Shown: in pieces, positions 6,409 to 63,799 of the stretch
Position numbering within the stretch: the first letter of the stretch is position 1
Layout: each line of letters begins with the position of its first letter
Assembly (NCBI GenBank): GCA_963758525.1
Contig: CAVWVQ010000003.1
Location: forward strand, 3,072,001 to 3,136,000
DNA length: 64,000 nucleotides
Origin: an uncultured Phycisphaerales bacterium
GTDB lineage: Bacteria > Planctomycetota > Phycisphaerae > Tepidisphaerales > Tepidisphaeraceae
Direction: 5' to 3'
The notes under the pieces: generated by a model
What the model saw: only the letters and a program-made list of their open reading frames with translations
What the model was told of the DNA's origin: nothing
The model's database searches: none
Position numbers and translations under genes: made by a program

Positions 6409-9400
6409 ATGACGAGGAACAATCGCGCACTTTCGACACCTGCCAACCGCAAGTCGGATTCATTACGGACTCGGACTCAATCAGAACTCCGTCGTCGGCG
6501 GCTGACCTGCGCTTGTGCGGCCATTGCTGCTGGGTCGGCGGGCCTGAGCTCGCTTATCGCCCGCGCGGCCAGTAACGACGCCTGGGGCACGGCGCCCTCC
6601 AGCCAAAACTTTAGCGGCACGAATTGGACAACCGGAACGACAACTCCGGGCGCAAACACGGGGAGCGCCGCCAGCGGCGACGCCCTATATTTTGGCAATT
6701 CGACGATTACGACCCTCAACAACGATGACTCGAACTATTCGTTTTCGGGTCTCATTTTCAACGCGGGTGCGGCGGCGGGGTTCACCATCAACGGCAACAG
6801 CTTTACCCTGACTGGTAATGTCACCAATAGCAGCACCAATCTTGAGGCAATCAATGCCCCAATTGCGACGATCGCCGCCCGCACCTTTACGATGACTTCG
6901 GGCGGAGGCAACATCAGCCTCGGCGGCAATATCAGTGGCACGGGCGGCGGGCTGACACTGGCGGGCACCGGGGTGCTGGCCCTCTCCGGTTCCAACTCCT
7001 TTACGGGAGTCGTTAGCATCGGCTCCACTGCCACGCTCCAGTTACAGGCCAATTCCAGCAACACTGCCAGCGGAATTTCCAGCGTGCTGCCCACGCAGAA
7101 TATGCTAATCGCGGCGCTCCCCTCCGGTGCGACCATTCAGTTGCGCGCGGATAGCTCGATTGCCTCCAATGGCGTCGTCGCTTTCGACAGTGGCGCCACC
7201 ACCTTTGGCAATAGCGGGGCCGGTCTCAAACTCACCGGCAACCTGAACTTCGACGTCAATCAGTTGACGACCGGTTCGGTCCCGACAACGTTGCAGTTCG
7301 GCGCAACCAGCGCCGTCTGGCAGGTTGGGACAGGCACGACCACATTTAACGTGACGGGCGGTGCTGGTTATTCTTTGCAAATAGGCTCTCTCAATGTTGG
7401 TAATAATCAGGCTGTCGTTTTCAATCCGACCACCGCCAACATGATCGTCGGAGCAATCGGCAACACGTCAGGAACCATTACCAAAAACGGTGCCGGCACG
7501 CTCACGCTCAACGGCAACAATAGCTACACTGGCAATACCGTAGTCAGCGCAAGCGCAGGCATCCTCATCCTGAGCGGCGCCAACAATAATGGCGCTATCG
7601 CCACGACTACGGTGAACAATGGCGCGACGCTGCAATTGCAGGCCAACAACGGCAATACCTCCAACTTCACCACCGCGTCCACGGCGCTCGGAACGGCCTC
7701 AGGCAAGCTGGCCCTGAACGATGGATCGACGCTGCAACTGCGTTCCGACACCAGTGTGACCTTTAACGGAACCGACAACCTCCCCAGCCTCAACAGCAAG
7801 ACGATCACGATCGATGTGAATAATATCACGGCCGGTACCACCAACGGTGTCAGCAACTTAGGAACCCCCCAAGGCCGGACCCTGAGCCTGGCCACCGCCA
7901 CAACCGGCCTCGGCTCGACCGGCCAATTCAACATCACTGGCGGCGACGGCTACACCCTGGCCTTCGGCCCGCTTGCCGCTGCCAATGGAACCGGCCAAAC
8001 CTGGACCTTCAATCCGACCAGCGCGTCGGCCACCATCGCCAGCTACACCAGTAATGTGTCGGTGGCTTCCAATACACTCGCGCTTGCCGGCACCTCGACG
8101 GGCAACGCTGTCCTGGGCGCGATCACCAATGGCTCGGCAACAGCCATTGCCGTGACCAAATCCGGTACCAGTACATGGACCCTCGGCGGAACGAACACCT
8201 ATACCGGCGCTACGACCGTCAACGGCGGCACGCTGAACATCACCGGCTCGACCGGCTCGGGATCGGCGGTCGCGGTCAACGGCGGCGGTACTCTCAGCGG
8301 TACCGGCACGGTCGGCGGCGCGGTGACGGTCGCCGGCGGCACTTCATCGTCCACGTACGGCACGATCAGCGTGGGACAAGGCCCCTTGACCTTAAGCAGC
8401 CTCACCCTGGGTGGAAGCACCAACAGCTCGAACAGCAATTTCTCCCAATTGAACCTTGCGACAGCGACCGGCAATACCTCGGCAGCCGAAATCGCTGTCA
8501 CCGGCGCTCTCACCACAAACAACGCGGGCGCCACCATTACCATCAATCCTGCGGGCATCGCTGGCGGCCAAACCTACGAACTGGTAAGCTTCAGCGGCAG
8601 CGGGACTTACGACGGCTCGGCTTTCGCCACGGGAAGCGGCCAGTCGTCGATCGACGGGTTCACCCTCAGTACTTCCAACCCGAGCTTTGGCGTCAGCGAC
8701 TCGCTGACGGTAACCGCCGCCAGCAACGGCCTCCTCGAACTGGTCACGACCGGCCAAACCTATGCGAACCTCTGGTGGTATGGCAACCTGGGCACGGCAT
8801 GGAACGCCAACAACGGATCGATCGGCAACTTCACCCAGGATGCGGCGGGAACCACGCCCGCCCAGGCCCTTCCCAGCAGCGGCACCACGGTCAACTTCTC
8901 GGCCACCGGCGCGAATAACACGGGCCCCATCACCCTGGGCCAGGCCTTCACCATCGCGGGCCTCAATTTCCTCGCCGCGGACACCAATTCAGCCGCCTTC
9001 CCCGCGATCAACATCACCGATTCCAGCAACAGCCTGACGATCGGGACCAGCACCGGCATCACCGACGCCAATAATGCCGGAGTGACGTTGTCCGTGCAGA
9101 ACTTGATTCCCAGCGTGTCCCAAACCTGGACCAACAGCTCCGGGGCCCTCTTCACCATCGGCAACGTCGCGGGACCTGGAACAGCAGGAACCACGACATT
9201 AACTCTCACCAACAGCAGCAGCGGCGGGACGACCATTAGCGGCGTGATCGGCAACGGCACGCCTTCCGGCGCCTTGGCCCTCATCGTCAAGAATACCGGC
9301 GCGGGCGTGACCACCCTCTCCAATACGAATAATACCTACAGCGGCGGCACCACCCTGAACGGAGGCACTTTGACTTCCGCGGTGACCGGCGGCTTCGGGA

Positions 9401-12051
9401 CAGGCTTCGTGACAGTCACTCCGACGGGCATGACGAACAATGCGGCGGACAATGCGACCCTGAACACCACGGGCAGCATCGCTTCCTCAGCGGCAGTCAC
9501 GGTCAATTCGGAAGCGAACGATGGCGGCTTCGGCATCGGCACAATCAACTTCAACAGCACAACGCCGACGATTGCCAGCCTGTCGGGCAACGGCAGCGTG
9601 GTGCTTAACAATGCCGGCGGCACGACGCTGACAGTGAGCGGCGGCGGGACTTTCTCCGGCGCGATCAGCCAGGGCAACGGCGGAACCGGTAGCCTGACCA
9701 TATCTGGCGGCACGCTGACCTTGTCCGGCGCAAACGCTTACACGGGCACGACTTCGGTCACGGCCGGCACCCTCAGCCTCACCGGTTCACTGACCAGCAA
9801 TGTCTCGACCAGCAGCACCGGCGTAGTCACGGAAAGCAGCGGCGGAGTCATCGGCGGTGCCAGCGCAACCTTTACGCAAGGCAGCCCCGGCAAAACGTCG
9901 ACTCTCGCGGGCGCCAACAGCTACGGCGGCACGACGACGGTCAGCACGGGTACGTTAGTCCTTTCAGGCAGCAACAGTTCGTCGGGGGCGACGACGGTGT
10001 CCGGGGGAACACTGCAATTGGCCAACACGGCGAGCGATGGCGGCCTGGCCAGCGGCACCCTAAGCCTGAGCGGCGGCACACTCCAGGCCACCGTGGCGGT
10101 TCCCTCCATCACGAATGCGGTCTCCCTGACGGCCAACAGCACGATATCGGGATCTCAAGCCCTGACGCTGGCCGGTGTGCTTACCAACTCGGGCGCCAGT
10201 TCGACCCTCACGGTGAATAATTCGGCCGCCACCGCGATCACCGGCGGCAATGTCTATCTGTCGGAGGCAACCGGCACGGGCCGGACGCTCACGATCAACG
10301 GCTCGGGCGCCGTCACGATTGGCGACGCTATCGCGAATTACAGCGGCGGGGCGGGCACGGCCAGCGCGCTGACCTACAGCGGCAGCGGCACTCTAACGCT
10401 CTCGGGCAACAACAGTTATACGGGCAATACGTCGGTCACCACAGGCATCCTCGTCCTGAGCGGGGCCAACAGCAACGGCTCTTCCGCCACGACTTCGGTA
10501 AGCAATGGCGCGACGCTCCAATTGCAGGCTAACAACAGCAATATCACGTCAAACGCTTCTTCCGCGCTCGGCACCGGTTCAGGCAAGCTGGCCCTGAACG
10601 ATGGATCGACGCTGCAACTGCGTTCCGACACCAGCGTGACCTTTAACGGCACGGACGCCCTCGGCGGCCTCAATGGCAGGACGATCACGATCGATGTGAA
10701 TAATATCACGGCCGGTACCGCCAACGGTGTCAGCAACTTAGGAACCCCCCAAGGCCGGACCCTGAGCCTGGCCACCGCCACAACCGGCCTCGGCACGACC
10801 GGCCAATTCAACATCACTGGCGGCGACGGCTACACCCTGGCCTTCGGCCCGCTTGCCGCTGCCAATACAAGCGGCCAAACCTGGACCTTCAATCCGACCA
10901 GCGCGTCGGCCACCATCGCCAGCTACACCAGTAATGTGTCGGTGGCTTCCAATACACTCGCGCTTGCCGGCACCTCGACGGGCAATGCTGTCCTGGGCGC
11001 GATCACCAATGGCTCGGCAACAGCCATTGCCGTGACCAAATCCGGCGCCAGCACCTGGACGCTCTCTGGTGCAAATACGTATTCCGGCGGGACAACGATT
11101 GCCGGCGGCACGCTCGCTTTGTCCCCGGCTTCGGGCACCAACAACATCGGGTCTTCCAAGTTCATCAACGTCGGCAGCGGAGCCTTCTTCAACGTCACTG
11201 CCGTCAACGGAACCGCGAACAACAGTTTCGCGTTGAACGGCACGCAAACCCAAACCACCAGCCAGATCCTCGGCGGCGTCGGCACTGTGACCGGAGCGGT
11301 TGCGATCGCCAACGGAGCGACGCTTTCCGCCGGCACCAACAGCGGCACGGGAAAGGTGAATGTCGTCAGTTCCCCCGCGAGTTCCACGCTGGTTCCCGCC
11401 ACCGGCAGCACGGATACCATCGGCACGCTGAACACTGGCAACCTGACCTTGGGAGCCGCCACCGGCGCGAGCGGAAATCTGGCTGTTAAGATTTCCGACA
11501 TGCCTTCGTCCGGAACTCCGACCGCGGGCGCCGCTGGCACCAACTATGATACGGTGGCCGCGCAAACGATCACCGTGCCCTCTAATTCGCCAACACCGCC
11601 GGCAAACCCCTTCAACGTGCAACTGCTGGGGTACGGGAAGGTCTCCAGCGTCGTGACGGCAAATGCCGCCTCGGCGAATTTTAATCCGGCTTCCACCTAT
11701 GTCTGGCAGATCGCCTCGTACACCTCCACCAATATTCCCGGAGCCGCCGACGGCACGACCGTCATCCTGACCAGCGGCGGTGGCCAGAGTCCCGTGACGA
11801 CGGGGTCGAACTCGGTCGCGGGTCTGTTCAGCCTCGACACCAGCGGTTTTGCCAGCGCGAACTCAATCCCCGGAGCCCAGCAGGGCGCGTTCTATCTGGA
11901 AGACGTTGGAACCACTGGCACCGCCGGAACATTGGACGTGGTCTACAACGCCACGCCGGAGCCGGGCACGGCGATGCTGCTGCTGGCTGGGGGATTACCG
12001 ATGCTGGTCGCTCGTCGCCGCCGTCGAAAGGCGGTCGCGGACGCAAGTTGA
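6409..12051 (+). CDS. Large Gly/Thr/Ser/Asn-rich surface protein with autotransporter-associated beta-strand repeats and PEP-CTERM sorting signal
   Basis: Many TKxGxGTLTLSGxNTYTGxTTVxxGTL repeats; ends TPEPGTAMLLLAGGLPMLVARRRRRK; no autotransporter barrel. Confidence 0.92.
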   Translation: MTRNNRALSTPANRKSDSLRTRTQSELRRRRLTCACAAIAAGSAGLSSLIARAASNDAWGTAPSSQNFSGTNWTTGTTTPGANTGSAASGDALYFGNSTITTLNNDDSNYSFSGLIFNAGAAAGFTINGNSFTLTGNVTNSSTNLEAINAPIATIAARTFTMTSGGGNISLGGNISGTGGGLTLAGTGVLALSGSNSFTGVVSIGSTATLQLQANSSNTASGISSVLPTQNMLIAALPSGATIQLRADSSIASNGVVAFDSGATTFGNSGAGLKLTGNLNFDVNQLTTGSVPTTLQFGATSAVWQVGTGTTTFNVTGGAGYSLQIGSLNVGNNQAVVFNPTTANMIVGAIGNTSGTITKNGAGTLTLNGNNSYTGNTVVSASAGILILSGANNNGAIATTTVNNGATLQLQANNGNTSNFTTASTALGTASGKLALNDGSTLQLRSDTSVTFNGTDNLPSLNSKTITIDVNNITAGTTNGVSNLGTPQGRTLSLATATTGLGSTGQFNITGGDGYTLAFGPLAAANGTGQTWTFNPTSASATIASYTSNVSVASNTLALAGTSTGNAVLGAITNGSATAIAVTKSGTSTWTLGGTNTYTGATTVNGGTLNITGSTGSGSAVAVNGGGTLSGTGTVGGAVTVAGGTSSSTYGTISVGQGPLTLSSLTLGGSTNSSNSNFSQLNLATATGNTSAAEIAVTGALTTNNAGATITINPAGIAGGQTYELVSFSGSGTYDGSAFATGSGQSSIDGFTLSTSNPSFGVSDSLTVTAASNGLLELVTTGQTYANLWWYGNLGTAWNANNGSIGNFTQDAAGTTPAQALPSSGTTVNFSATGANNTGPITLGQAFTIAGLNFLAADTNSAAFPAINITDSSNSLTIGTSTGITDANNAGVTLSVQNLIPSVSQTWTNSSGALFTIGNVAGPGTAGTTTLTLTNSSSGGTTISGVIGNGTPSGALALIVKNTGAGVTTLSNTNNTYSGGTTLNGGTLTSAVTGGFGTGFVTVTPTGMTNNAADNATLNTTGSIASSAAVTVNSEANDGGFGIGTINFNSTTPTIASLSGNGSVVLNNAGGTTLTVSGGGTFSGAISQGNGGTGSLTISGGTLTLSGANAYTGTTSVTAGTLSLTGSLTSNVSTSSTGVVTESSGGVIGGASATFTQGSPGKTSTLAGANSYGGTTTVSTGTLVLSGSNSSSGATTVSGGTLQLANTASDGGLASGTLSLSGGTLQATVAVPSITNAVSLTANSTISGSQALTLAGVLTNSGASSTLTVNNSAATAITGGNVYLSEATGTGRTLTINGSGAVTIGDAIANYSGGAGTASALTYSGSGTLTLSGNNSYTGNTSVTTGILVLSGANSNGSSATTSVSNGATLQLQANNSNITSNASSALGTGSGKLALNDGSTLQLRSDTSVTFNGTDALGGLNGRTITIDVNNITAGTANGVSNLGTPQGRTLSLATATTGLGTTGQFNITGGDGYTLAFGPLAAANTSGQTWTFNPTSASATIASYTSNVSVASNTLALAGTSTGNAVLGAITNGSATAIAVTKSGASTWTLSGANTYSGGTTIAGGTLALSPASGTNNIGSSKFINVGSGAFFNVTAVNGTANNSFALNGTQTQTTSQILGGVGTVTGAVAIANGATLSAGTNSGTGKVNVVSSPASSTLVPATGSTDTIGTLNTGNLTLGAATGASGNLAVKISDMPSSGTPTAGAAGTNYDTVAAQTITVPSNSPTPPANPFNVQLLGYGKVSSVVTANAASANFNPASTYVWQIASYTSTNIPGAADGTTVILTSGGGQSPVTTGSNSVAGLFSLDTSGFASANSIPGAQQGAFYLEDVGTTGTAGTLDVVYNATPEPGTAMLLLAGGLPMLVARRRRRKAVADAS
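7699..11045 (+). repeat. Intragenic near-identical duplication: 7699-8165 repeated at 10579-11045 (offset 2880 nt)
   Basis: Long identical stretches, e.g. tcaggcaagctggccctgaacgatggatcgacgctgcaactgcgttccgacaccag, in both copies. Confidence 0.95.
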
Positions 12052-19418: not shown

Positions 19419-20607
19419 CTACTTCGACGGACGCTCTTTCAGATCAGCCTGCGCTTCCTGAAGCGAGAGGACCGCGAACGTCGTCGCCAGGACGGGCTTG
19501 CTCTCCATCCACTTCTGGGTGCCGTTGAAGCTGCCGTCGTCTTTTTGGACGGCGGCGAGTTTGTCGATCAACTCGATTCGCCAATCGTGCTTATTGCCCT
19601 TCGAGTCGGTGATGATCGGCTCGCCGTAGGCGCGCAGGCGCGGGCGAGCGTGTGATAATAATAGAACAAACCGCTGTCACCAGCGCCGGGTCATTGGCGT
19701 TCATGCCGGGGTTCACGTCGAGCGTCCAGTTGTTGCTCACCCATTTCCAGGCAGCTTTGACGCGGGGATCATCTTTGGTCAGCCCGGCATACATCATGCT
19801 TTTGAGCCCGGCATAGGTCATTGAGCCGTAGCTGCGGAGCAGTTTTCGGCCGTCGGGACCGGTGTACTCGCCGGCCGGGGAGCTTCCGCCGTCGGCGGGG
19901 AAGTAGACGAAGCCGCCGTCGTCGCCGGCCCATTTCTGATCGTTGGTTTCGGAGTTGTTCTGGCAGCGGGTGACAAATTTGAGCGCGGCCTGAAAGGCCG
20001 GATCATCGCTCTTCATGCCCGCGTCCTTCAGAGCGTCGAGGGCGAAGTTCGTGTTGCTGTCGTCGGCGCGGCCCTGGCGGCCGTATCCGAATCCCCCGAA
20101 GTTTGGGTTGCTCGGATCGACTTTTTTGCTCTGCTCCGGCAGGCCTTCGATTTTGTCCGTCCATTGCAGATCGCGGAGATACTTCACCGCCTTGTCGAGG
20201 TGGTCCTTGTATTCTGCCTCTTTTGAAACGGCGATCGCACTGACCGCAATCGCGGTGTTGTAGGTCGCCAGCATATCGGCGGAGATGCTGCCGTCGGGCT
20301 TCTGATAGGAGAGGAGTTTGTCGAAGCCCTTGTCGAGAAACGGATTTTCCGGGTCGTAGTGAGAGTTCTGCATGAACGCCTTGAGGACCAGCGCCGTGAT
20401 CGCGGGCGGGTCAGACGGCTGCTGCCAGCCGAAGTCGGGGTTCTGATGGGCTTTGAGATAGAGAAGGCCCTTTTCGATGGACGCCTCGGCGCGATCGGCG
20501 GGGGGTGAAGGTTGTGTGGTCACATCGTTGTTCGCCAGCGTTGATAAGGCCGTAGCGAGTAAGAGGGCGATCGATGCGGATGTCGCTAGATAACGGGGAC
20601 ACGGCAT
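19419..20607 (-). CDS. Secreted prenyltransferase/squalene-cyclase-repeat (alpha/alpha barrel) protein, frameshifted ~19640-19690
   Basis: Signal peptide; repeats QNPDFGW, QKPDGSI, GGFGY, DDGGFVY, YGSMTYAGLKS; tail HDWRIELIDKLAAVQKDDGSF...KERPSK* read manually. Confidence 0.82.
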
Positions 20608-20700: not shown

Positions 20701-22639
20701 CTAAAACGGCAACGACTGATCCATCCAATCGTCACTGCGGAGCACCTGTTTTCGATTGAACCGCGCGAATCGCTCGGCCTTGGCCTGTGCCATGGCGATA
20801 AGTCGTCCCGCACCGATGGTGCGCCAGGCCTTTCGCGCGATCGGTGCGTGACGCAGAAACAGGTCGTCTTCGGCGCAGGCAAAGAGCTGGGCGCACCCAG
20901 GATCTCCCTGACGGGCGGCTCTGCCGAAGAGCTGGCGGTCGACGCGGCCCGAGCCGTGGGGTTCGGTGGCGATCACGTGGAGACCGCCCATCTCGGCGAC
21001 GCCTTTGGCGAGCTTGATGTCGGTGCCGCGGCCGGCCATGTTGGTGGCGACGGTGATCATGCCGCGGGTGCCGGCTTCAGAGACGATCGAGGCTTCGCGC
21101 GCGGTCTGGGTGGCGTTGAGCACGCGATGCACTTTGCTTAAATCGGTGAGCCGTTTGCTCACTTCCTCCGACGCCAGCACGCTGCGGGTTCCGACGAGAA
21201 CGGGGACACCCTTCTCGTTCAGTTCGCAGACGCGCTGGATGACGGCCGTCCATTTTTCTTCCATCGTATCGAACATGCGCAGCGGAAGCAGCGTGCGGAT
21301 GCACGGGCGGTTGGTCGGAATGCGCACAACGGGGCGCTGATAGATCTGCCAGAGCTCGCCGGCAGATTCCCATGCGGTGCCGGTCATGCCGCTCATGTCA
21401 GGATACTGGCGGAAGAAGCGCTGGAAGCTGAGACGGGCGAGGTTTTCCTTGTCAGCGGTGACATTGACTCCCTCCTTGACCTCGATCGCCTGGTGCAGCC
21501 CGTGCCGCCAGCTTCGATCGGCCATCACGCGGCCCGTGAACTCGTCGATGATCTGCACCTTCCCGTCTTCGGCGACGAGATAATGCTCGTCGCGGACGAA
21601 ACAATGGCGTCCGCACAGCGCCTGCGTCACCAGCTCTTCGCGCCGGCGCTTGCCTTTCCAGAAGCCGGAGGCGGCCGAGAGTTGTTCCAGGCGTTCCTGT
21701 CCATTGGCGGTCAGATCGACGCTGCGAACCGTGCGGTCGATGGTGAAGTCGCGACCGAATTGAAGCTGCTGGGCCAGCTCGTCGGCGGCGCGGTAGTGCG
21801 TGGCATTGGGCTCGTCATCGGGAGAATTGGAAATGATCAGCGGGGTCACCGCTTCGTCGATGAGAAGGCTGTCCGCTTCGTCGACCAGGGCGCGCGCCAG
21901 GCCGGGAACCATCAGCCGCCCCGCAAAGCTGGAGGCGCCGCCGGCGAGTTGACGCACGGAGGTCTGGGTGCTGGTGCGGAGCGTGCCGAGCTGAAGCTGA
22001 TCGCGGAGGAAATCGGCCACCAGCTCCTTGCTCGTGCAGTAGACCACGTCGCGGCGGTAGTGATCGATGCGCTCATTGGCGGGAAGATCATGGACGATGG
22101 CTCCGGCACGCAATCCGAGCATGCGGTAGACCGGCCCCATCTCGTGAGCGTCGCGTTCCACCAGATAATCGTTGACGGTAATCACGTGCACGGGCCGTCC
22201 GCGCCAGGCGAGCAGCGAAGCGGCGAGCGAAGCGGTGAGCGTCTTGCCTTCCCCGGTTGCCATTTCCGCGACGGCGCCGCCGATCATCGCCAGCGCCCCC
22301 ATGATCTGCACGTGGAAGGGCCGCATTCCCAGCGCCCGCCACGCCGCCTCGGCGCCAGGGCCATGGCGCGATCTTCGGCCTCTCCCTCAAGCCGGCCGCG
22401 CCGCGCCAGCGCCGCGCATCGGCCACCGCGTCGCGAAACCGTTCGGCGCCCAGCTCGCGGATCTGAGGCTCGAGCTGCTCGATCCGATCCGCCTGCGCGC
22501 GAAGGCGCGCCAACATCGGCCGGCGGTTCTTAAACCATCCATGCACCCCGTTGGCGGCGGCGTCGAGTCCCTTGAGTTCCGGCGCTTTTACCCGCCGGGC
22601 GTCAAAGATCGCGTAAAGTTCGTCAGTGGCGGAAGTCAT
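20701..22639 (-). CDS. secA: Accessory, C-terminally short SecA-family (SecA_DEAD) ATPase; frameshifted ~22340-22420
   Basis: EMATGEGKT, HVITVNDYLVERD, VDEADSLLIDEA, IIDEFTGRVM, GMTGTA, VATNMAGRGTDI, RVDRQLFGRAARQGDPG; ends shortly after NBD2. Confidence 0.9.
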
Positions 22640-22645
22640 TGGGGG

Positions 22646-22903
22646 GAAGGCACGAAGGCACGAAGGCACGAAGGCACGGAGGGAAGAGGGAACGAGAAGC
22701 ACGAAAGGGACGAGAGGCACGAAGGCACGTAGGCACGTAGGCACGGAGGGGAAGATAGGCGGTGAAGGGGGAGGAAATTCATCGAGTTACTCATGGCCTT
22801 CTCTGATTGCTCGTAAGTGCGCGAAAACTTTGACCGAGGAAGGCACGATGCGAAAATCCGGGCCTGACTCTGATTTTCCCTTCGTGCCTCCGTGCCTTCT
22901 TCC
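22646..22903. repeat. Octamer-array inverted bracket filling the M50-to-secA junction
   Basis: (gaaggcac)n at 22646-22750; complementary ttcgtgcctccgtgccttc at ~22881-22899. Confidence 0.85.
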
Positions 22904-22904
22904 T

Positions 22905-25096
22905 TTACATCCACGGACTGTTCTTCGTCTGAATCAACTGGAGGAACTTTCGCTTCCATTGCACGAACAACGGCGTGCTGTCGAGAGTGAAACGCACGTA
23001 CACGCGCTGGCCGGGATAGTACTTGCCGCTGGGATTCGAGACGGGGACGTCCACCTCAAACTGCTCGTTCTGCGATTTAGTGGGATCCTTGGGATCCACC
23101 GGCTCGTCTTCGCCGCCGGGCTGGGCGACGGCGGGGCTCGGGAGGTCGCGCGTGGCGGCGCCGATCGGACGCGGCGCGCCGGCGGGAACCGCCGTTCCAA
23201 GATCGCCGGCAAATTGCACCGCCGTCTTGTTCACGTGCCCGATGATCAACTGCGATTCAATCTGCTCCAGCAGCACCTTCACGGTCAGCTCGGTATTGCG
23301 GGCGATCGTGCAGATCTCCTGGCCCTTCTGGAGATAGCGACCTTCATACAGATTGATGTCGGGAGCGATCAGCTCGCCATCGATGGTCGCCCGCACGGTC
23401 AGTTCGTCCCGGCGGCGCTGCATTTCGTCGAGTTGCACCTGCAGCGTGTCAACCACTTCCTGGTCGATCGCCTCTTGAGCCGTGTCCTCGGCGCCGAGGC
23501 GAGCATCTTGATCCGAGCCGCCTGCAACTCGGCCTGCTTCTGCGCGATCTGGCTGTCGAGCTCGGGATCACGGCAGATCAGCAGCAGATCGCCGGGCGTT
23601 TTGTCATGCGGACCGTGAACCCATTGATGATCGTGCGCAATCACCTCCGTGACAAAGCCGCCGCGCCGCGCGTTGAGCTTGTCGTGCGCGGTTGCTTCGG
23701 CGATGCCGACCTGTCCGACGTGCATCGGGAAGCGGATCAGCCCGATGACGATGATCGCGATCGCCGCCACCGCCAGGCAGAACGCCGTCGCGCGGCCGCG
23801 CTTGCGATGCAGTTCCGGGTCGAGCGCAAGATACTTGAAGACTTTGACGACCGGGACCACAAGCCAGGTGATCAATCCGCCGATCGCCATCAGCATTCCC
23901 AGCACAGGGATCTGGTAGGCCACGAGCAGGATGATGAGCACGCCGATGAACGTGCGATAGATGGATGACGAAATCGCGTAGGCAAACAGCCAGAAGCGCT
24001 GCAACGGCGGAGGGAGCGGCTGCTGGAGCTTGATGCGGAACACATGCCGCTTGATCAGGCCCATCGCATATTCGGTGCTCTTCTGGCGGAGATTGGGGAT
24101 CTCCAGGAAATCGGAAAGGATGTAATAGCCGTCGTAACGGAGCAGAGGGTTGGCGTTGAAGATGACCGTCGTGACGCTCGCGACAAGCATCGCGTTGAAC
24201 GCAAGCTGGCGGACGAGATGCGTCTCGTTGGTGTTGCGCCAGACGAACGCGCAGAGGGCGGCGAAGAAGAGCTCGACGATCATGCCCGCCGCGCCGACGA
24301 AGATGCGCTGCCATTTGCTTGGGAAAGACCACGCACTGGACGCGTCAACATAGGGCGTGGGAACGAAGACCAGGAACATAATTCCCAGCTCGTGGCATTC
24401 GCCGCCAAAGCGCCGGCAGGAAAAGGCATGGCCCAGCTCATGGATGAGTTTGATGAAGACGAAGACGCTCCAAAGCCACAGCAGGTTGATCGTATTCCCC
24501 TTGATATCGACGGCGTGGCGCGCAGAGTCCTGCAGCCCGTGGGGGCCATTCCACTGGGGGGCGATCACCACCAGCGCCGAGATGATCACCGCCAGCCAGA
24601 CCACCACCCCGAGCTTGCTGAACATGACGCGGGCCAGCGGCATCCACCGGCGGAGAAACCGGTCCGGATCCCACAGCGGAATGCGCGGGAAGAGCACGTT
24701 CATCAGCCGGCCCTGCATCTTGCGCTTGGTGAGCTGCTTGTGCCGGCGGAGCAGAACCGTGGCGTCGGGCGTAACGTCGGCCTCGATCAGATTGGCCGAG
24801 TAAAGATGCGACAGAATCTGGATCACTTCCGGCTGCGTAGGCGCATCGTCGGCAAGCTGTCCGCCGCACAATTCCCACGCTTCTTCGACGGTTCGCGACC
24901 CGTCGAGCAGTCCGACGAATCGGTAAGCCGGGTCGCTGAGCCGGTGAAACTGATTGCCCGCCGGGTCGCGTACGACGTACCAGCGGTCGCCGCGATAGAA
25001 CTGACGCGAGATATGGGCGCTGACGCGCAGCCGCACGCGCAGCTCCGCAACGCGGTACCAGGACTCGGAAAAAGTGGGCCGTAGTTGGAGAGTCAT
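22905..25096 (-). CDS. PqqD-like N-domain + M50 (site-2) metallopeptidase + HlyD-like adaptor fusion; frameshifted ~23480
   Basis: LLDGSRTVEEAW...LSHLYSANLI; KLIHELGHAF (HExxH); FNANPLLRYDGYYIL; C-terminal LTVRATIDG, YYPGQRVYVRF. Confidence 0.88.
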
Positions 25097-25114
25097 CTGG
25101 GGTTCAGTGTGATT

Positions 25115-25630
25115 GAGGGTTCAGGGTGTCAGGGTTCAGGGTGTCAGGGTTCAGGTAGGGAGGACGGGTTAAGATCCAGGGTTGGGCGCAGGGAAGCGAC
25201 GGTCGCTGGGGGCGAGTTGTTGTTCCAAAGTTCTTTCCAGTCCGTTAAGCATTTTTACGCACTCGGTATAGCGCTCGCGGTAGTCGTTATACGTTTCTTC
25301 TGTCAGGTAGCCTTTCAGCATCGCTATGTACAAGTGATGAACCGCTTCCAGCGATTCGCCCCTTGCACGGTTTGCGCCTTCAATTTTATTCCGCACATGC
25401 CGATCGCTGTGCTTCTCGGCCAGTTGCGCCGGAGCGCTGTTCGAACAGCGCCTTATCTGGGACACCAGCTCAAACCGTTCTTCCCTTGGCCATTTCGCGG
25501 ACAGCTGACAAACCTCCAAGTGCAACACGCACAACTTCTGATAAATGCTCAGATCCTCAATCCGCTTAAATCCCACCACAACCATCCCCTCCGAAATCCT
25601 GAACCCGGACCCCTGACACCCTGAACCCTC
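25115..25630. mobile_element. Inverted-repeat-bracketed cassette carrying a four-helix-bundle gene
   Basis: gagggttcagggtgtcaggg (25115-25134) is the exact reverse complement of ccctgacaccctgaaccctc (25611-25630); arms are 7/8-mer tandem arrays (25115-25155, 25598-25630). Confidence 0.7.
25169..25585 (-). CDS. Four-helix-bundle protein (23S rRNA IVP / Avd-like family)
   Basis: FKRIEDLSIYQK...WPREERFELVSQIRRCSNSAPAQLAE...ARGESLEAVHHLYIAMLKGYL...KMLNGL; SD GGAGGGG. Confidence 0.9.
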   Translation of the reverse strand: MVVVGFKRIEDLSIYQKLCVLHLEVCQLSAKWPREERFELVSQIRRCSNSAPAQLAEKHSDRHVRNKIEGANRARGESLEAVHHLYIAMLKGYLTEETYNDYRERYTECVKMLNGLERTLEQQLAPSDRRFPAPNPGS

Positions 25631-25632
25631 TC

Positions 25633-27581
25633 TCACATCCACAACTTGAGCTTCAGGAAGTCGATCAGCCGGTGCGTCCAGATCCAGGCGACGCTGCGCT
25701 TGGCGACGTCGACGCGCGCTTCGCCTTTCATGCCGGGGCGCAGGTGGGGACGGCTTTGCCGGTGAGGGTGACGTAGACGCGGAAATTGTTGGTCCCTTCT
25801 TTCGGATCGGGAATGGGGATGATGCGCTCGACGACAAAATCGAACGAGTCGCCCGGCTGGGCGTTGGTGGCGAGGGTTCCGTGCTGGCCGATGTGAATGT
25901 TCTGGATGTCGCGGTCATCGACGGTCAGTTCGCCGCGCAGGTCGTGATCGCTGCCGATTTCGAAGAGCACGTCGCCGGTCTTGACCGGGGAATCGAGTTT
26001 ATCTTCCAGGTCACCCTTGAGGATCTCCGCGTCGACCGGGGCGACGATCGTGCCGCGGGCGATTTGGGCGCTGAGAAAATCCACTTCGTTTTTAGCTTCT
26101 TCACCTTCCGAGATGGAAACCTGTTCCTCGGCGGTCTTTTCCTCGGCGCGGTAGCGGGCGGCTTCCTTGGTCTTGGTGTTCACGCGGGCCTGCGCCTCGG
26201 CCAATTTCAGCTTCATGTCGGTGGTGTCGAGCATGGCCAGGGTCTGGCCCGCCTTGATCATGTCACCTTGACGGAGCGGCTTGCCATCCGGGCCCTTGCC
26301 CACTTCGCTGATAAAGCCTTCGAAGGGCGCGGGAATCTGGCAATGCGCCCGCGAGGCAAACTCGAACGAGGCGCTGACGTGGTACATCGGCCTGATGACG
26401 AAGATGCCGACGAGGATCAGCGCGACGCCGATGGCGATCAGCTTGCCGAGCATATGCTGCGGGCCAACGGCACGCTTGGCGAGTTCGCGGATGCTGATCC
26501 CGGCTTTGGTGATCAGCCAGCGATCGTTCTGAAATCGGTCGTACAGTTGTGGAGCCAGCAGATCGATGGCGATGCTCAGCGCCTGCCCGACGTTAGGCCC
26601 CAGTTTTTCCTGCGCGGGGAATTCGGCGGTGATGACGCCGATGATCTCATCGCGCCGCCGCAGCGGCAGCGAGAGGACAGCGGCGCCGCCCTGCTCGCGG
26701 GAAAACGCGGCGGCTTCGCGCGTGACGTTCTGGGTGTTTTGCCCGGCGGGATCGAACTGAACGATTTCGTCCTGATCCGCGCATTCCTCCATCACCTTCT
26801 CGAGCGAGACGATCAGTTCCTGTTTCTTGTCGAATTCCTCAGTGTGCGAGATCGCCTTGACGCGGACGTTTCGCCCCTTCACCCAGCCCATGGTCACGCG
26901 CGACGCGTGCGCCCGGCCGGCCAGCTCGTTGCACAGATTCATCGCCGCCGACTCAAACCCTTCGGCCGTCGCGACGGAGGTGGAGAGCTGCAGCACGTGC
27001 TGATGGCTCTCGGCAATCAACTTGCTCTGCTCGGCAAGGCGGCGCAGGGTGAACAACTCGAAATATCCGGCCACGAGCTTCATCGAGTTGAGGCGCTGGC
27101 GGGCGCGTTCCAGATCGAGGCAGCGGGCGATGACCGCGGAGACGGCCACCACCTCGTTGTCCGCGCGCAGGAGCGTGACGAGGCAGAACTGTGTTTCGTG
27201 AGTGTCGCCGGTCATTCCCAGTTCGATTGCGCCGTCCTTCATCTGCTGCACGCAGGGAACGACCAATTCCTGGAACGCCGACACGGCCGCGGTGCGAACC
27301 TGGGCGCTGCTGTTGTCATGGCGGAGATGCGCGAGAAGGCGGAGGGAGACCGATTCGTCCGCGCGTTCGATGAGAAAGCCGACGGCTTCGGTTCCCGCAA
27401 CGGTCGTCGCCTGCGTGCTGATCAGCTCAGTGACGAATGCGGGGAGATCCCGGGCGTCGATCAGGCGCTGCGCCAGCTCCGAGCGGTGCCCGCTGGGTTG
27501 CGCGGTTCCCTGCGCCTGTTCGGCTTCAGAACTTTGCGATGATTCGACTATCCCTTCAGCCACGAATTGCTCCTTGCTCAC
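25633..27581 (-). CDS. HlyD/MFP-family adaptor with N-terminal GAF-like region; frameshifted ~25745
   Basis: GAF-like AAVLSLPLRRRDEIIGVIT; TM; lipoyl-like IPAPFEGFISEV and IVAPVDAEI; tail RPGMKGEARVDVAKRSVAWIWTHRLIDFLKLKLWM*. Confidence 0.85.
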
Positions 27582-27656
27582 TTGCGCTTGCGTGCCGCAT
27601 GCAGATCAGATCAGTTGCGGAGCTGCCCTGCGGGGCAGCCGCTAAACTTTGCCGGT

Positions 27657-28523
27657 TCAGTGCTCCGCGGAGTTGACAGATGCGACGGCGTCCGACGTCT
27701 TCACCTGCACCTGCAATCCCGATTGCCGGCCGGCGGCGTTTGCGAGTTGCAGGCGGACTTTTTGGCGATCGCTCCGGGCATCAGCCTCGGGCGCCACGAA
27801 AATGACCTGCGCCTCGAGCCACTTGTCTTCGCTGGCGTAACGCACGTCCATCATCTGCTGCTTGTGAATGTTTTTCACGACGCCTGTCGGCAGCTCTACT
27901 TCGACATACAGCGGATCGTTCTGGATGATGGTCATGATCGGCTTGGAGACATCCGAAGAGGCAGCTTCGCCGACATGCGTGTTGATCTTCGATACCACGC
28001 CCGCCACCGGACTGCTCAACTGTTTCAGTTTGATCTTCGCCTGCTCCTGCTCGACCTCCGCCATGGCCTTCTGCTTTTCCTGCTCGGCAAGCTGGATGCG
28101 AATGGCCGCGATCACCTCATTGACCTTGGCTTCTTCCAGTTCGCTCTCGCCGACGACGTTATCCTTCCGCATTTCCTGTTTGCGCTTGAGTTCAACCACC
28201 TTGGCGTCGTGATCTGCCTTGGCGGCGATGATCTGCAGATCGGAGTTGGCCTCGACTTGGGCCACTTTCACGGCGGCCTCCTCCAAGACGCAATCCTGCA
28301 CCGCGATCAGTTGGCCGGCCGTTACCACGTCGCCTTCCTTGACCGGCTCTTCGCTCACCACGCCGGGGCCGTTAAACGACACGTCCCGCGACTCGGAAGG
28401 CTTGGTGAAACCGGGATACAGCGTTTCATCGCCTTGCGCGACAACTGTCCCGGCACAAAGCAGCACCAGCCCGGCCCCGCAGCGGCCCCAAGCACCAAAT
28501 CCAGCAAATGTCTTCAAAGCCAT
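27657..28523 (-). CDS. Efflux RND/T1SS periplasmic adaptor subunit
   Basis: Signal peptide; VSFNGPGVVSEEPVKEGDVV; coiled coil; LSSPVAGVV; FVAPEADARS. Confidence 0.88.
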   Translation of the reverse strand: MALKTFAGFGAWGRCGAGLVLLCAGTVVAQGDETLYPGFTKPSESRDVSFNGPGVVSEEPVKEGDVVTAGQLIAVQDCVLEEAAVKVAQVEANSDLQIIAAKADHDAKVVELKRKQEMRKDNVVGESELEEAKVNEVIAAIRIQLAEQEKQKAMAEVEQEQAKIKLKQLSSPVAGVVSKINTHVGEAASSDVSKPIMTIIQNDPLYVEVELPTGVVKNIHKQQMMDVRYASEDKWLEAQVIFVAPEADARSDRQKVRLQLANAAGRQSGLQVQVKTSDAVASVNSAEH

Positions 28524-28765
28524 GAAATCTCCGACGCCAGTTCGCGTATGATTCATCTGAACAGGACCGAGGCCGGGTAAAAGCCCCTAAGCCCCACCTG
28601 CTGTCGCCACACCGAAGCTCAGTTCACTACTTCTGGATCGACATCGCGAAGAAAGCGTCTTGAGGGCGACTGGTAATTCCGCGCATTAATCGCAGAGCCA
28701 GTTTATCAGGCAACTTACCCTCGCGCCAATCCCATGCAACCGTACGCCCGCCCGAGCGGTTCGGT

Positions 28766-61300: not shown

Positions 61301-63799
61301 TCAAGCCAGCGCCGCGGCGATCAGATCGACACTGCCGCCGGTTCCATTGATGTTGGCGCTCTTGGTGTAGGTGATGGTCAGCTTCTGCCCCGCAGAAGCG
61401 GCCTTGTAGGTGATGGTATAGAGGTTTGTATAGATGGCATTGCCGGACGCGGTGAGTACAACGTCGGCGGCCGAGCCGTCGGAGAGGTGGGCGGTGAGGG
61501 TGCCGCCGCTGGAATTGCCGCCGGCGTAGATGTAGAGGGTGCGGCTGGTCGTGTCGGCGGGCGCGGTGAACGAATATCCGGCGCCGATCGCGTTGTTGGC
61601 CCAGATGTAGGCGTGATCTGCCGAGTCACTCGCAGTTGGCGTGCCGTCGGTCCAGGAGACGGAACGACTCGGGTCGTAATAGGATCCCACGCTGCCTGAG
61701 CCGAGCACGGTCACATTGCTGATCTGCGAAGATCCGGCGGCCTTGTAGTCGAAGTTTCCGTACACATTTCCACGGCCCCAATGGGTCCAGTCGCGGGTTC
61801 CGAGCGTGGTGAGGTTATAGGCGGAAGCCGCAACCGCTTGAGATCCGGTTAGCGATCCGGCCCCGGGAGCCTGGATCATTATCTGGAAGTTTCCCAGTGT
61901 TGCGGAAGATGCAAAGTTGTTGCTGGTATCGCTGACGGAGTTGGCTGCCAGCGCCACCGAATAAGTTCCGTTGGCGGCCATTGTCCATCCGCCCGCAGGC
62001 GGCATTACCGAGTATGTGGCAGTGATCGTGGCGCTGTTGCCCGAGGGTGACGCACTGACAAAGGCGGCGGTCTGACTTGAAGGACCGCTTAATACGAGGT
62101 TCCCGGTCACCAGGCTTGCAGCTCTCACCGCGACGTTGTCAGTATAAGTCACGGTTAGCGTCGCCGCCGCGGCGGACGATGTGACCGTGGGAACCGTCTG
62201 CAACGTGGCATGGGGGGGAACGGTATCCGCCACGGGCGCGCCCGCCAGATACGCCGCGATCAGATCCACGCTGCCGCCGGCTCCATTGATATTGGTGTTT
62301 TTGACGTAGCTGATCGTCAGCTTTTGCCCGGCGGAGGCCGCCTTGTAGGTGATGGTGTAGAGCTGGGAGTAAATTCCCGTGCCCGATGCCGAGGCCGCGT
62401 AATCGGCGGCCGATCCGTCGGAGAGATGGGCGGTGAGCGTGGCGCCGCTGGAATAGCCGCCGGCATAAACATACAGCGTGCGCGTGGTGGTATCGGCGGG
62501 CGCGGTGAATGAGTAGCCGGCGCCCAGCGCGTTGTTGGCCCAGATATATCCATCGTCGCCGGAGTCGGTCGCGGTGGGCGAGCCGCCGGTCCAATTGACT
62601 GACCGAGAGGCATCGGTGTAACCCCCGAAGCCGGCGCCGCCGGGGTTAATGTTTGTGACGTTGCTGATCTGCGAACCGCCGGTGGCGTCGTGGTCGAAGT
62701 TGCCATACGTGCCGCCGCGTCCCCAGTGCGCCCAATCGGCGGTGCCGAGGCTCGTGAGGTTGTAATGTGACGCGGCAGCGGCCTGCGATGCGACGAGCGA
62801 ACCGCCGCCCGGCGCGGTTGTTTTCCCGTTGGCGGCGGCATCGGCTACTGCGGCCAGCGTGGTCCAGTCGGAACTGCTCAACCCAAGGTTGGAAAGGATG
62901 CCACTGACATTCGCAACGGGAATGCCGGATACGTTTGCGTGGTAGATCGTGTCGAAATTCACCATCGCGTTGAGCAGGATGCCCAGGGTGCTCGGATGAT
63001 ATTGAATGCCGTCGCCGGAGATCGTGGAGTACAGGCTGGTTTCCCAGTTGAGCGCGCGCCAGGCTTCCCCGACCGGCGACACTCCCGTTGAGCCCGCGCC
63101 GTCGGCGGCGTTAATGTTGCCCGCGGCGAGGTTGTAGTTGGTTTGCAGTTGGTTCTGCATGTCGGTGGGACCGGTGAAATAAGTGGGGTAATAGCTGTTC
63201 GTCGCTCCACGCGCCCAGGTTTCATACAGCATGCCATGCACGGAAGGGCTGTTGGCCCGCACGTCATTGAACAGTTGCAGCGCGTCTGATTCGAACAGCG
63301 GCACATTCCCCTCGAGCGCGGTCGCGTTGGTGGGGCGGGTGCTGTATTCCTGGAGGACGACATCGTTCCAATGCTGCCCCGCCGGCAGCGAACTGACGAT
63401 GATGTTGCCGCTCCCGTCGCTGGCGATTTTGTTCAGATGATCCGCCAGCGTCTCTCCCAGCAGAATCTGCTCGTAAACATTCGGCGACGCAAGGCCGTCG
63501 GCCACCGCGATTGACTTGATCGTCGCCGGCATGTCGTAGGCGGCGCCGTCTGTCGAGTTATTCGTAAAGCTGTTGCCGAAGAAGAGCAGGTTCAGAGCCG
63601 GCGCGGCGGAGAGAAGCTGTCGAGCTTCCAAGAGTTCAATCAAAGCCTCTCCGCCCATACCGATACGCCCTTTGGCCCCCTGCAGGGCCGCGGTAAACAA
63701 TCCGTGGGTCTCCGCTGCCCCCTGCGCTGTTGCACAGAAGCAACGATTGCTGTTCGGATGAAAGAGCGGGTTCATTCGATGCTGCTTTGTATTTGCCAT
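61301..63799 (-). CDS. Secreted planctomycete LEPRxLL-type protein with SGNH-hydrolase-like domain and two copies of a ~185-aa beta-sandwich domain
   Basis: IELLEARQLLS; LFFGNSFT, VVLQEYS, YETWAR, PVGEAW, YHPS; duplicated YNLTxLGTxDWxHWG...VDLIAA; start uncertain. Confidence 0.82.
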   Translation of the reverse strand: MANTKQHRMNPLFHPNSNRCFCATAQGAAETHGLFTAALQGAKGRIGMGGEALIELLEARQLLSAAPALNLLFFGNSFTNNSTDGAAYDMPATIKSIAVADGLASPNVYEQILLGETLADHLNKIASDGSGNIIVSSLPAGQHWNDVVLQEYSTRPTNATALEGNVPLFESDALQLFNDVRANSPSVHGMLYETWARGATNSYYPTYFTGPTDMQNQLQTNYNLAAGNINAADGAGSTGVSPVGEAWRALNWETSLYSTISGDGIQYHPSTLGILLNAMVNFDTIYHANVSGIPVANVSGILSNLGLSSSDWTTLAAVADAAANGKTTAPGGGSLVASQAAAASHYNLTSLGTADWAHWGRGGTYGNFDHDATGGSQISNVTNINPGGAGFGGYTDASRSVNWTGGSPTATDSGDDGYIWANNALGAGYSFTAPADTTTRTLYVYAGGYSSGATLTAHLSDGSAADYAASASGTGIYSQLYTITYKAASAGQKLTISYVKNTNINGAGGSVDLIAAYLAGAPVADTVPPHATLQTVPTVTSSAAAATLTVTYTDNVAVRAASLVTGNLVLSGPSSQTAAFVSASPSGNSATITATYSVMPPAGGWTMAANGTYSVALAANSVSDTSNNFASSATLGNFQIMIQAPGAGSLTGSQAVAASAYNLTTLGTRDWTHWGRGNVYGNFDYKAAGSSQISNVTVLGSGSVGSYYDPSRSVSWTDGTPTASDSADHAYIWANNAIGAGYSFTAPADTTSRTLYIYAGGNSSGGTLTAHLSDGSAADVVLTASGNAIYTNLYTITYKAASAGQKLTITYTKSANINGTGGSVDLIAAALA

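Follow-up and report, generated by a model that had tools for sequence, protein, structure and literature searches.

The locus described here occupies positions 20701–28556 on the minus strand of a 64,000-nt stretch of contig CAVWVQ010000003.1 (assembly GCA_963758525.1, an uncultured Phycisphaerales bacterium); this whole stretch is called the window, and the genome, the source genome. The locus carries a module of four genes, single-copy in the source genome, which encode a periplasmic adaptor, a GAF-adaptor protein, a fusion of a PqqD-like (RRE) domain with an M50 protease and an adaptor, and an accessory SecA. The module very probably serves proteins bearing an N-terminal leader of the LEPRxLL type. 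The features are as follows (window coordinates).

27657–28556, minus strand: periplasmic adaptor (membrane fusion protein); start at 28556 or 28523; HlyD_D23, E 8e-11, HlyD_3, E 1e-10
25633–27581, minus strand: tandem-GAF/one transmembrane helix/adaptor protein; frameshift near 25750
25169–25585, minus strand: inserted four-helix-bundle gene of the 23S rRNA intervening-sequence type (23S-IVP); PF05635, E 6e-24, TIGR02436
22905–25096, minus strand: RRE/M50 intramembrane zinc protease/adaptor fusion; Peptidase_M50, E 2e-8, PqqD, weak, E 0.003; frameshift near 23493
24770–25057, minus strand: RRE (PqqD-like) domain, fusion residues 14–109, from the predicted structure (pLDDT of the model, 91.9)
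24128–24442, minus strand: M50 motifs HExxH (H219, E220, H223) and NxxPxxxxDG (N314, P317, D322), from the alignment
20701–22639, minus strand: accessory SecA-like ATPase (NBD1, PPXD, NBD2); Pfam SecA_DEAD, PP_bind, P-loop_SecA; frameshifts near 22410 and 22352
61301–63799, minus strand: candidate cargo, leader-bearing protein; motif at 63637–63608

Pfam domain matches confirm the set of four module genes listed in a first-pass annotation of this DNA, which overlooked the inserted gene at 25169–25585 and the frameshifts in three of the genes. That annotation also described an operon devoid of ABC (ATP-binding cassette) or RND (resistance-nodulation-division) pumps and of TolC, and indeed no such genes are found within the operon, either in the list of open reading frames (ORFs) or with Pfam. 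The standalone adaptor scores 86 bits with RND_mfp, under the cut-off, and, according to hydropathy, has an N-terminal hydrophobic, signal-like stretch and no further membrane segment. In the AlphaFold model of the GAF-adaptor, two GAF-like domains precede one membrane helix (residues 378–396 by hydropathy), and tandem-GAF phosphodiesterases are the top Foldseek matches (E 5e-10); among 50 homologues, 46 have GAF and 49 have HlyD_3. Together with the M50 fusion, the module thus contains three adaptor domains.

The M50 Fusion

The catalytic residues H219, E220, H223, N314, P317, and D322 are invariant in all 87 aligned fusions, and the same motifs are invariant in a 20-sequence alignment of a second subtype (see below). 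The AlphaFold model covers fusion residues 1–430 and its fold assignment rests on VIA-align, since Foldseek ranked RRE and site-2 protease (S2P) families first, none at E ≤ 0.001. The protease part matches RseP (Z 9.6), SpoIVFB (Z 7.8), and S2P (Z 7.5), and the earlier reading as an M50 peptidase holds. The RRE part shows a three-strand plus three-helix winged fold and aligns with TbiB1 (5v1u; Z 9.5, root mean square deviation 2.9, 81 aa), 6jx3 (Z 9.4), and PqqD (5sxy; Z 8.3), with non-RRE winged-helix domains scoring nearly as high (8hkr, Z 9.3); in the model, the PqqD-like part therefore appears to fold like leader-binding RREs, as had been proposed. It is predicted to lie in the cytoplasm. 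A sequence search for solved relatives of the M50 part returned none, all 36 matches falling on the adaptor part.

Two M50 proteins related to the N-terminal part of the fusion (L162:6882-10265 and L163:9395-12787) lack the adaptor and have a long C-terminal extension that, by eye, resembles tandem cyclic-nucleotide-binding domains.

The Accessory SecA

The accessory SecA retains Walker A, the DEAD-like motif, and motif VI, and the three SecA ATPase patterns are matched by 59, 58, and 57 of 63 uncut related frames. It aligns to the full-length SecA of the same genome up to residue 813 of the latter's 1333-aa frame, that is, to the start of the scaffold helix; the SecA_SW domain was not found in it with Pfam, and it has neither wing nor C-tail. 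The stripped-down SecA of the first-pass annotation is thus corroborated in its domain content, and its length of about 645 aa, only as a read-through over two frameshifts. The scaffold and the two-helix finger of SecA engage SecY, and the finger pushes the substrate into SecY; given where the alignment ends, the two-helix finger would therefore be missing from the accessory SecA. The separate full-length secA, whose presence had been posed as a check, lies at C3:175573 (plus strand) and has a C-terminal zinc motif.

Short SecA frames of genomes G034 and G066 were rejected as accessory SecAs, being cut canonical SecAs, and long frames of G121 and G165 were rejected as M50–SecA fusions, being upstream read-throughs. 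Degenerate accessory SecAs, with weak similarity or lost motifs, are seen in three otherwise intact modules of subtype A, defined below (L170:3949-5943, L168:10786-12366, L119:12126-14057).

Leader-Bearing Proteins

In the source genome, 65–73 ORFs carry an N-terminal ExLExRxLLS leader. The strict leader pattern has 46 matches, vs. 0–1 for 15 permuted patterns, and the profile search yields 73 matches at E ≤ 0.01, of which 41 had trained the profile. The leader lies within 150 aa of the frame start in 63 of 65 ORFs (22 expected) and is preceded by a basic N-region in 60 of them; hydropathy exceeds 2.0 in only three of the 65, compared with 2.3–2.9 in five of seven putative exported controls. 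Sixteen of 20 chosen leader ORFs carry extracellular-type domains (immunoglobulin (Ig)-like, RTX, carbohydrate-binding module, SdrD-B, fn3, or similar), and two of 20 scanned cargo ORFs contain RTX nonapeptides. With the existing models, only five leaders of this genome reach E ≤ 0.01 (NF012209), and none passes the PF07595 cut-off.

The protein at 61301–63799, suggested earlier as a leader protein without a classical signal peptide, indeed has the leader and no hydrophobic signal stretch; its mature part has no Pfam match. The source genome also encodes a 3627-aa leader-bearing ORF with RHS repeats and Ig-like and carbohydrate-binding domains (L201, G000:C3:4590181-4601061).

Co-occurrence of the Leader and the M50 Fusion

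The leader and the fusion were compared in 250 genomes of Planctomycetota besides the source genome (G000), using NF012209, a leader model independent of our own profile. With NF012209, 35 genomes have both, three have the leader only, 35 the M50 fusion only, and 177 neither; with our own leader profile, the respective numbers are 42, 5, 28, and 175, and by family (n = 79), 20, 2, 10, and 47. Nine planctomycete families hold both double-positive and double-negative genomes. Hence, the fusion is present in 35 of 38 NF012209-positive Planctomycetota, and, among the matches listed, in 44 of 44 genomes with an accessory SecA. Genome G057 was removed as M50-positive, for its RRE–M50 protein has a different C-terminal part and no adaptor. 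In five of five leader-positive, M50-negative genomes, the fusion profile (A1) matched the adaptor part only. In five leader hits of such genomes that were inspected (G197, G184, G155, G021, G544), the motif lies 237–1200 aa inside the frame, which suggests that these five are chance hits.

The same holds in a second phylum. Among 301 genomes of Pseudomonadota centered on G255, 72 have the fusion, 40 the leader, and 39 both. Their 62 leader ORFs have a median length of 4,399 aa, and 33 lie no further than 10 kb from the fusion gene, these being 33 of the 37 that share a contig with it. Co-occurrence with LEPRxLL-type leaders, which the first-pass annotation had put forward as a check, is therefore found in both Planctomycetota and Pseudomonadota.

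Gene Neighborhoods and Two Subtypes

Conservation of the neighborhood was assessed in the best 80 of 563 related loci (subtype A). Where the flank is long enough, 65 of 67 loci have the GAF-adaptor and 64 of 69 have SecA; of all 80, 18 have DUF3467, eight have SapC, and three have TolC (by BLAST). The DUF3467 family may be a further component. The source genome has two unlinked DUF3467 genes (L158 and L159, G000:C2:149618 and 429500), one with a tandem domain.

In Pseudomonadota, two subtypes can be delineated by fusion score: subtype A, above 500 bits (28 genomes), which goes with the GAF-adaptor and SecA, and subtype B, about 300–420 bits (44 genomes with B only), whose fusions are full-length homologues with intact catalytic motifs. 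Twenty subtype-B loci, chosen by us, have two adaptors, TolC (11 of 20), and DUF4347 or other giants, and none of the 20 has ABC or SecA in the neighborhood. All 44 subtype-B-only genomes have a single SecA match, the canonical one. An accessory SecA is present in 24 of 28 subtype-A genomes; of the remaining four, one is cut by the contig end, one is degenerate, and in two (G273, G489) it is absent. Thus, the M50 fusion is not obligately tied to SecA, and the first-pass view of the accessory SecA as the motor is not supported as a general rule, given its lack in the subtype-B-only genomes and in G273 and G489, and its degeneration in three loci. Since it is missing from many relatives, the accessory SecA is probably an optional feeder, not a universal motor.

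The subtypes also differ in the leader. By eye, the residue following the motif is Asp in 16 of 16 subtype-B loci and Ser, Thr, or Ala in 14 of 15 subtype-A loci (L163, the second hit in L164, and L167, lying inside other genes or in short opposite frames, were dropped before this count). The source genome, which has subtype A only, yields no Asp-type leader among 78 pattern matches. As subtype B is devoid of the accessory SecA and the leader dialects match the subtypes, the constant core consists of the fusion, the adaptors, and the leader, and SecA is accessory. One genome, G229 (L171, L172), contains both subtypes, each beside a protein with its own leader dialect.

Several loci lie on plasmids. 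On annotated plasmids, a LEPR-XLL giant is encoded directly upstream of the module in Pseudosulfitobacter and Thalassospira, and a LamG giant, in Methylosinus. On the Escherichia coli plasmid NZ_CP081687.1 (L056), the fusion is accompanied by TolC, two adaptors, and a giant protein that has Ig repeats and a leader-like N-terminus, and SecA is lacking; near-identical fusions are found on plasmids of E. coli, Citrobacter, and Hafnia; this plasmid occurrence implies that the system is mobile in enterobacteria. The SecA-less subtype also occurs in Pseudomonas species.

Proposed Mechanism and Alternatives

From the gene content, motifs, model folds, leaders, co-occurrence, adjacency, and subtype dialects described above, we infer leader binding, cleavage, the pore, and the energy source as follows. 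The RRE domain probably binds the ExLExRxLL leader of the cargo, judging from its modeled fold, and the intramembrane M50 zinc protease, with its conserved motifs, likely cuts the leader off. By way of its three adaptor domains, the module would span the periplasm and connect to an unlinked TolC channel, no ABC pump being involved, and passage of the cargo through TolC in one step is favored, somewhat less firmly than binding and cleavage. The shortened SecA is likely a cytoplasmic ATPase specific to subtype A, where it would keep the cargo unfolded and feed it to the M50 complex instead of SecYEG; the chances that it is the motor of this subtype are evenly balanced. In subtype B, the candidate energy sources are the housekeeping SecA, the proton motive force, and a folding ratchet. 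For the chain as a whole, a leader-guided, protease-coupled exporter without ABC and with the M50 fusion as its core, the balance tips slightly in favor.

Several observations weigh against this scheme. Hydropathy indicates about five strong helices in the M50 membrane part, and we know of no S2P protease that serves as a protein channel. No ATPase is evident in subtype-B loci. The source genome has about nine unlinked OEP genes for TolC (17 matches), none tied to the module, and TolC linkage is rare in subtype A, as noted above. NF012209 has no match in 35 of 70 fusion-positive Planctomycetota and 33 of 72 fusion-positive Pseudomonadota, its misses explaining some of the leader-negative cases (L161, L173, L174, L178), and kinship among the genomes makes the co-occurrence counts non-independent. 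Three of the module's genes are frameshifted here. Finally, in L175 and L177 an RND (AcrB-family) pump operon with its own adaptor follows directly downstream of the M50 fusion and adaptor, and L083, L084, L165, and L178 have ABC genes close to the module.

The alternative that survives best, albeit unlikely, is a two-step route in which the leader would act as a Sec signal of an unusual kind, delivery of the cargo to SecYEG would fall to the accessory or the housekeeping SecA, the M50 fusion would be only a leader peptidase, and the adaptors and TolC would take the cargo from the periplasm to the surface. It would agree with the usual partnership of SecA and SecYEG, with the canonical SecA being the only one in subtype B, with the basic N-region of the leader, and with the Sec-type signal that the standalone adaptor itself bears. 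However, the leaders lack the hydrophobic h-region seen in the controls, the accessory SecA stops before the scaffold and the two-helix finger, and the RRE domain is predicted to be cytoplasmic and is fused to an adaptor that bridges the periplasm.

Less probable still is that an unlinked ABC or RND transporter provides the pore and the energy, with the module merely supplementing a conventional tripartite pump with leader processing and adaptors. Adaptors usually pair with a pump, RTX nonapeptides are found in the two cargo ORFs mentioned above, the source genome has 29 ABC-type matches, and some loci do adjoin pump genes. Yet this linkage is sporadic, the ABC pattern being found in two of 80 subtype-A loci and none of the 20 subtype-B loci, as opposed to the conserved GAF-adaptor and SecA. 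The RND pump operon, which came from a check of 26 selected proteins rather than a systematic search, adjoins only L175 and L177, two genomes of one planctomycete genus among 20 further loci, with ABC genes near two more of these. A cognate pump consistently linked in relatives, named earlier as grounds for abandoning the idea, is therefore not observed in these loci. Moreover, none of the HlyB/LssB or HlyD-type models of type I secretion systems (T1SS) passes its cut-off in the source genome, which is 91% complete; the best TIGR03375 match scores 313 bits vs. the cut-off of 693.

It is quite improbable that the operon is a decaying pseudogene cluster in the source organism, whatever the family does elsewhere. 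This possibility is raised by the repeat-flanked inserted gene and by four frameshifts in three genes (near 25750, 23493, 22410, and 22352), placed by comparison with intact relatives, those in SecA with L058, L060, and L062; the full fusion and the 645-aa SecA exist here only as read-throughs across them. On the other hand, the pieces of the M50 fusion that flank its break contain no stop codons and share 84% identity with an intact relative, and the genome keeps its 65–73 leader proteins with a single module. Close homologues of the fusion are mostly intact (712–772 aa), the named ones coming from Tepidisphaeraceae, Humisphaera, and Phycisphaerales. Housekeeping genes of the same assembly are in short frames too (the single fusA, 284 aa; the single lepA, 353 aa; a ClpB/C match, 365 aa), and for this reason the frameshifts are probably assembly errors, a reading that rests on these short frames and the intact genes of relatives. 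Two public runs of soil DNA match the source, its share in them being small, and no RNA run is listed; the contigs of these two did not span two of the frameshift sites.

The least probable option is a signaling or quality-control device that, by regulated intramembrane proteolysis with GAF input, would trim or shed large surface proteins exported otherwise. In its favor are the regulatory function usual for S2P proteases, the structural matches to RseP and SpoIVFB, the tandem GAF domains, and the regulatory role that Kamneva et al. (2015; PMC4452313) suggested for the GAF protein. Against it stand the number of adaptor domains (three), the presence of TolC in 11 of 20 subtype-B loci, and cargo without other recognizable export signals.

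Inserted Element and Neighboring Genes

The inserted four-helix-bundle gene is flanked by inverted tandem repeats (window 25100–25637, 35-nt arms, 89% complementary), is absent from 80 of 80 related loci, and lies outside the conserved module; with its repeats, it looks like a small mobile insertion within the operon. A second intergenic interval, between the M50 fusion and SecA (22632–22919), contains 8-nt tandem repeats in inverted arrangement and is apparently an empty or decayed element akin to it. Directly downstream of SecA lies a gene of a secreted protein with prenyltransferase/squalene-cyclase repeats (19591–20607, minus strand), apparently also frameshifted near its end. At 6409–12051 (plus strand), the window encodes a surface protein of 1880 aa that has passenger-associated beta-strand repeats and, as a different sorting signal, a weak PEP-CTERM tail.

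Comparison With Known Systems

The statement in the first-pass annotation that this gene association had been noted computationally is borne out by the "secondary SecA_DEAD" locus (Kamneva, Poudel, and Ward, 2015; PMC4452313), for which SecA was proposed as the ATPase and M50 as the pore. All its features that we checked are present here, namely, a second SecA_DEAD without SecA_SW beside a canonical SecA, neighboring M50/HlyD, GAF/HlyD, and HlyD proteins, and no ABC. The sections of that report available to us are anchored on SecA and do not name the cargo, the leader, or the RRE domain; here the part that stays constant is the M50 fusion, and a subtype without SecA is described. In turn, the LEPR-XLL N-terminal motif (PF07595, Planc_extracel), of the same class as our leader, was proposed in 2004 (Studholme) as a novel export signal, and the available text of PMC8567305, which recounts this, assigns no export machine to it; in Tuwongella, 52 genes have the motif and 20 were detected by proteomics (PMC8567305). 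We found no open-access literature joining the leader and the module. The locus is of a computationally known and, apparently, experimentally uncharacterized kind. The export signal of 2004, for which a machine was missing, and the secretion-like locus of 2015, for which the cargo was missing, seem to belong together as the halves of a single system.

A further link is offered by Chlorobium chlorochromatii, which has a second SecA in Kamneva's tree (PMC4452313) and whose LEPRxLL giants were reported to be transferred to its partner; there TolC, SapC, HlyD, and autotransport were invoked, with no mention of M50 in the portion of the report available to us (10.64898/2026.03.19.712371). The Pectobacterium MRP secretion system was considered as a candidate for the same module and dropped, since LapG, which PMC6963963 mentions, points to another kind of system.

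If true, the proposed role would explain the placement of dozens of surface proteins in planctomycetes and the export of adhesin-like proteins of 3,000–19,000 residues by many proteobacteria, and would extend leader recognition by RREs from small peptides to protein secretion. As tractable Pseudomonas species have the SecA-less subtype, the question is directly testable, and a new one arises as to the power source in loci without a linked ATPase. The broadest formulation, to which we give even weight for and against, would be a secretion class of its own in Gram-negative bacteria, in which the place of the ABC transporter is taken by an RRE/site-2-protease/adaptor fusion that reads the leader as do the enzymes of RiPPs (peptides made by the ribosome and modified after translation) and exports proteins of up to titin size through TolC, with a SecA-fed subtype (LExRxLL-Ser/Thr/Ala) and a SecA-less one (Asp-type leader, DUF4347 giants), and which would be the main route of the planctomycete surface proteome.

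Accessory SecA2 systems (SecA2-only and SecA2/SecY2) likewise have a second SecA paralogue beside the canonical one. The module SecA differs from Gram-positive SecA2 in the loss of the scaffold and wing, in the linked adaptors with no SecY2 in the locus, and in scores far under the cut-offs (422–470 bits with TIGR04221, TIGR03714, and TIGR04397, vs. 725–1085, for the 541-aa piece scored).

A close likeness to the fusion is seen in the daptide protein MpaP, described as an RRE-dependent intramembrane leader peptidase with the RRE N-terminally fused to S2P (10.1101/2023.03.08.531785). The homology spans residues 40–417 of the fusion (NF041824, daptide_HExxH; 155.7 bits, E 2e-45), and, by eye, ELExMEAP, the motif of the daptide precursor, is similar to the leader. 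According to the available text of the same source, the substrates of MpaP are short peptides in RiPP clusters, and the protein lacks an adaptor domain. The fusion falls outside the daptide family, its score being well below the cut-off of 300 bits, and daptide-type neighbors are absent from the locus.

In its mode of action, the module may be compared with the peptidase-containing ABC transporters (PCAT/AMS, such as PCAT1 and CvaB) and HlyB–HlyD–TolC, where, as proposed here, the inner-membrane component has a fused protease that recognizes and cuts the N-terminal leader, and an adaptor and TolC complete the path (PMC8277102). Of the T1SS/PCAT features, an adaptor protein is present at the locus, and a cognate HlyB/PCAT-type ABC transporter was not found. 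The module differs from PCAT in having no ABC domain, in carrying an RRE and an intramembrane M50 zinc protease where PCAT has a C39 cysteine protease, in three adaptor types, and in cargo whose length ranges from hundreds to over 10,000 residues. By analogy, then, the module would work most like PCAT, though it is not a member of the T1SS/PCAT group.

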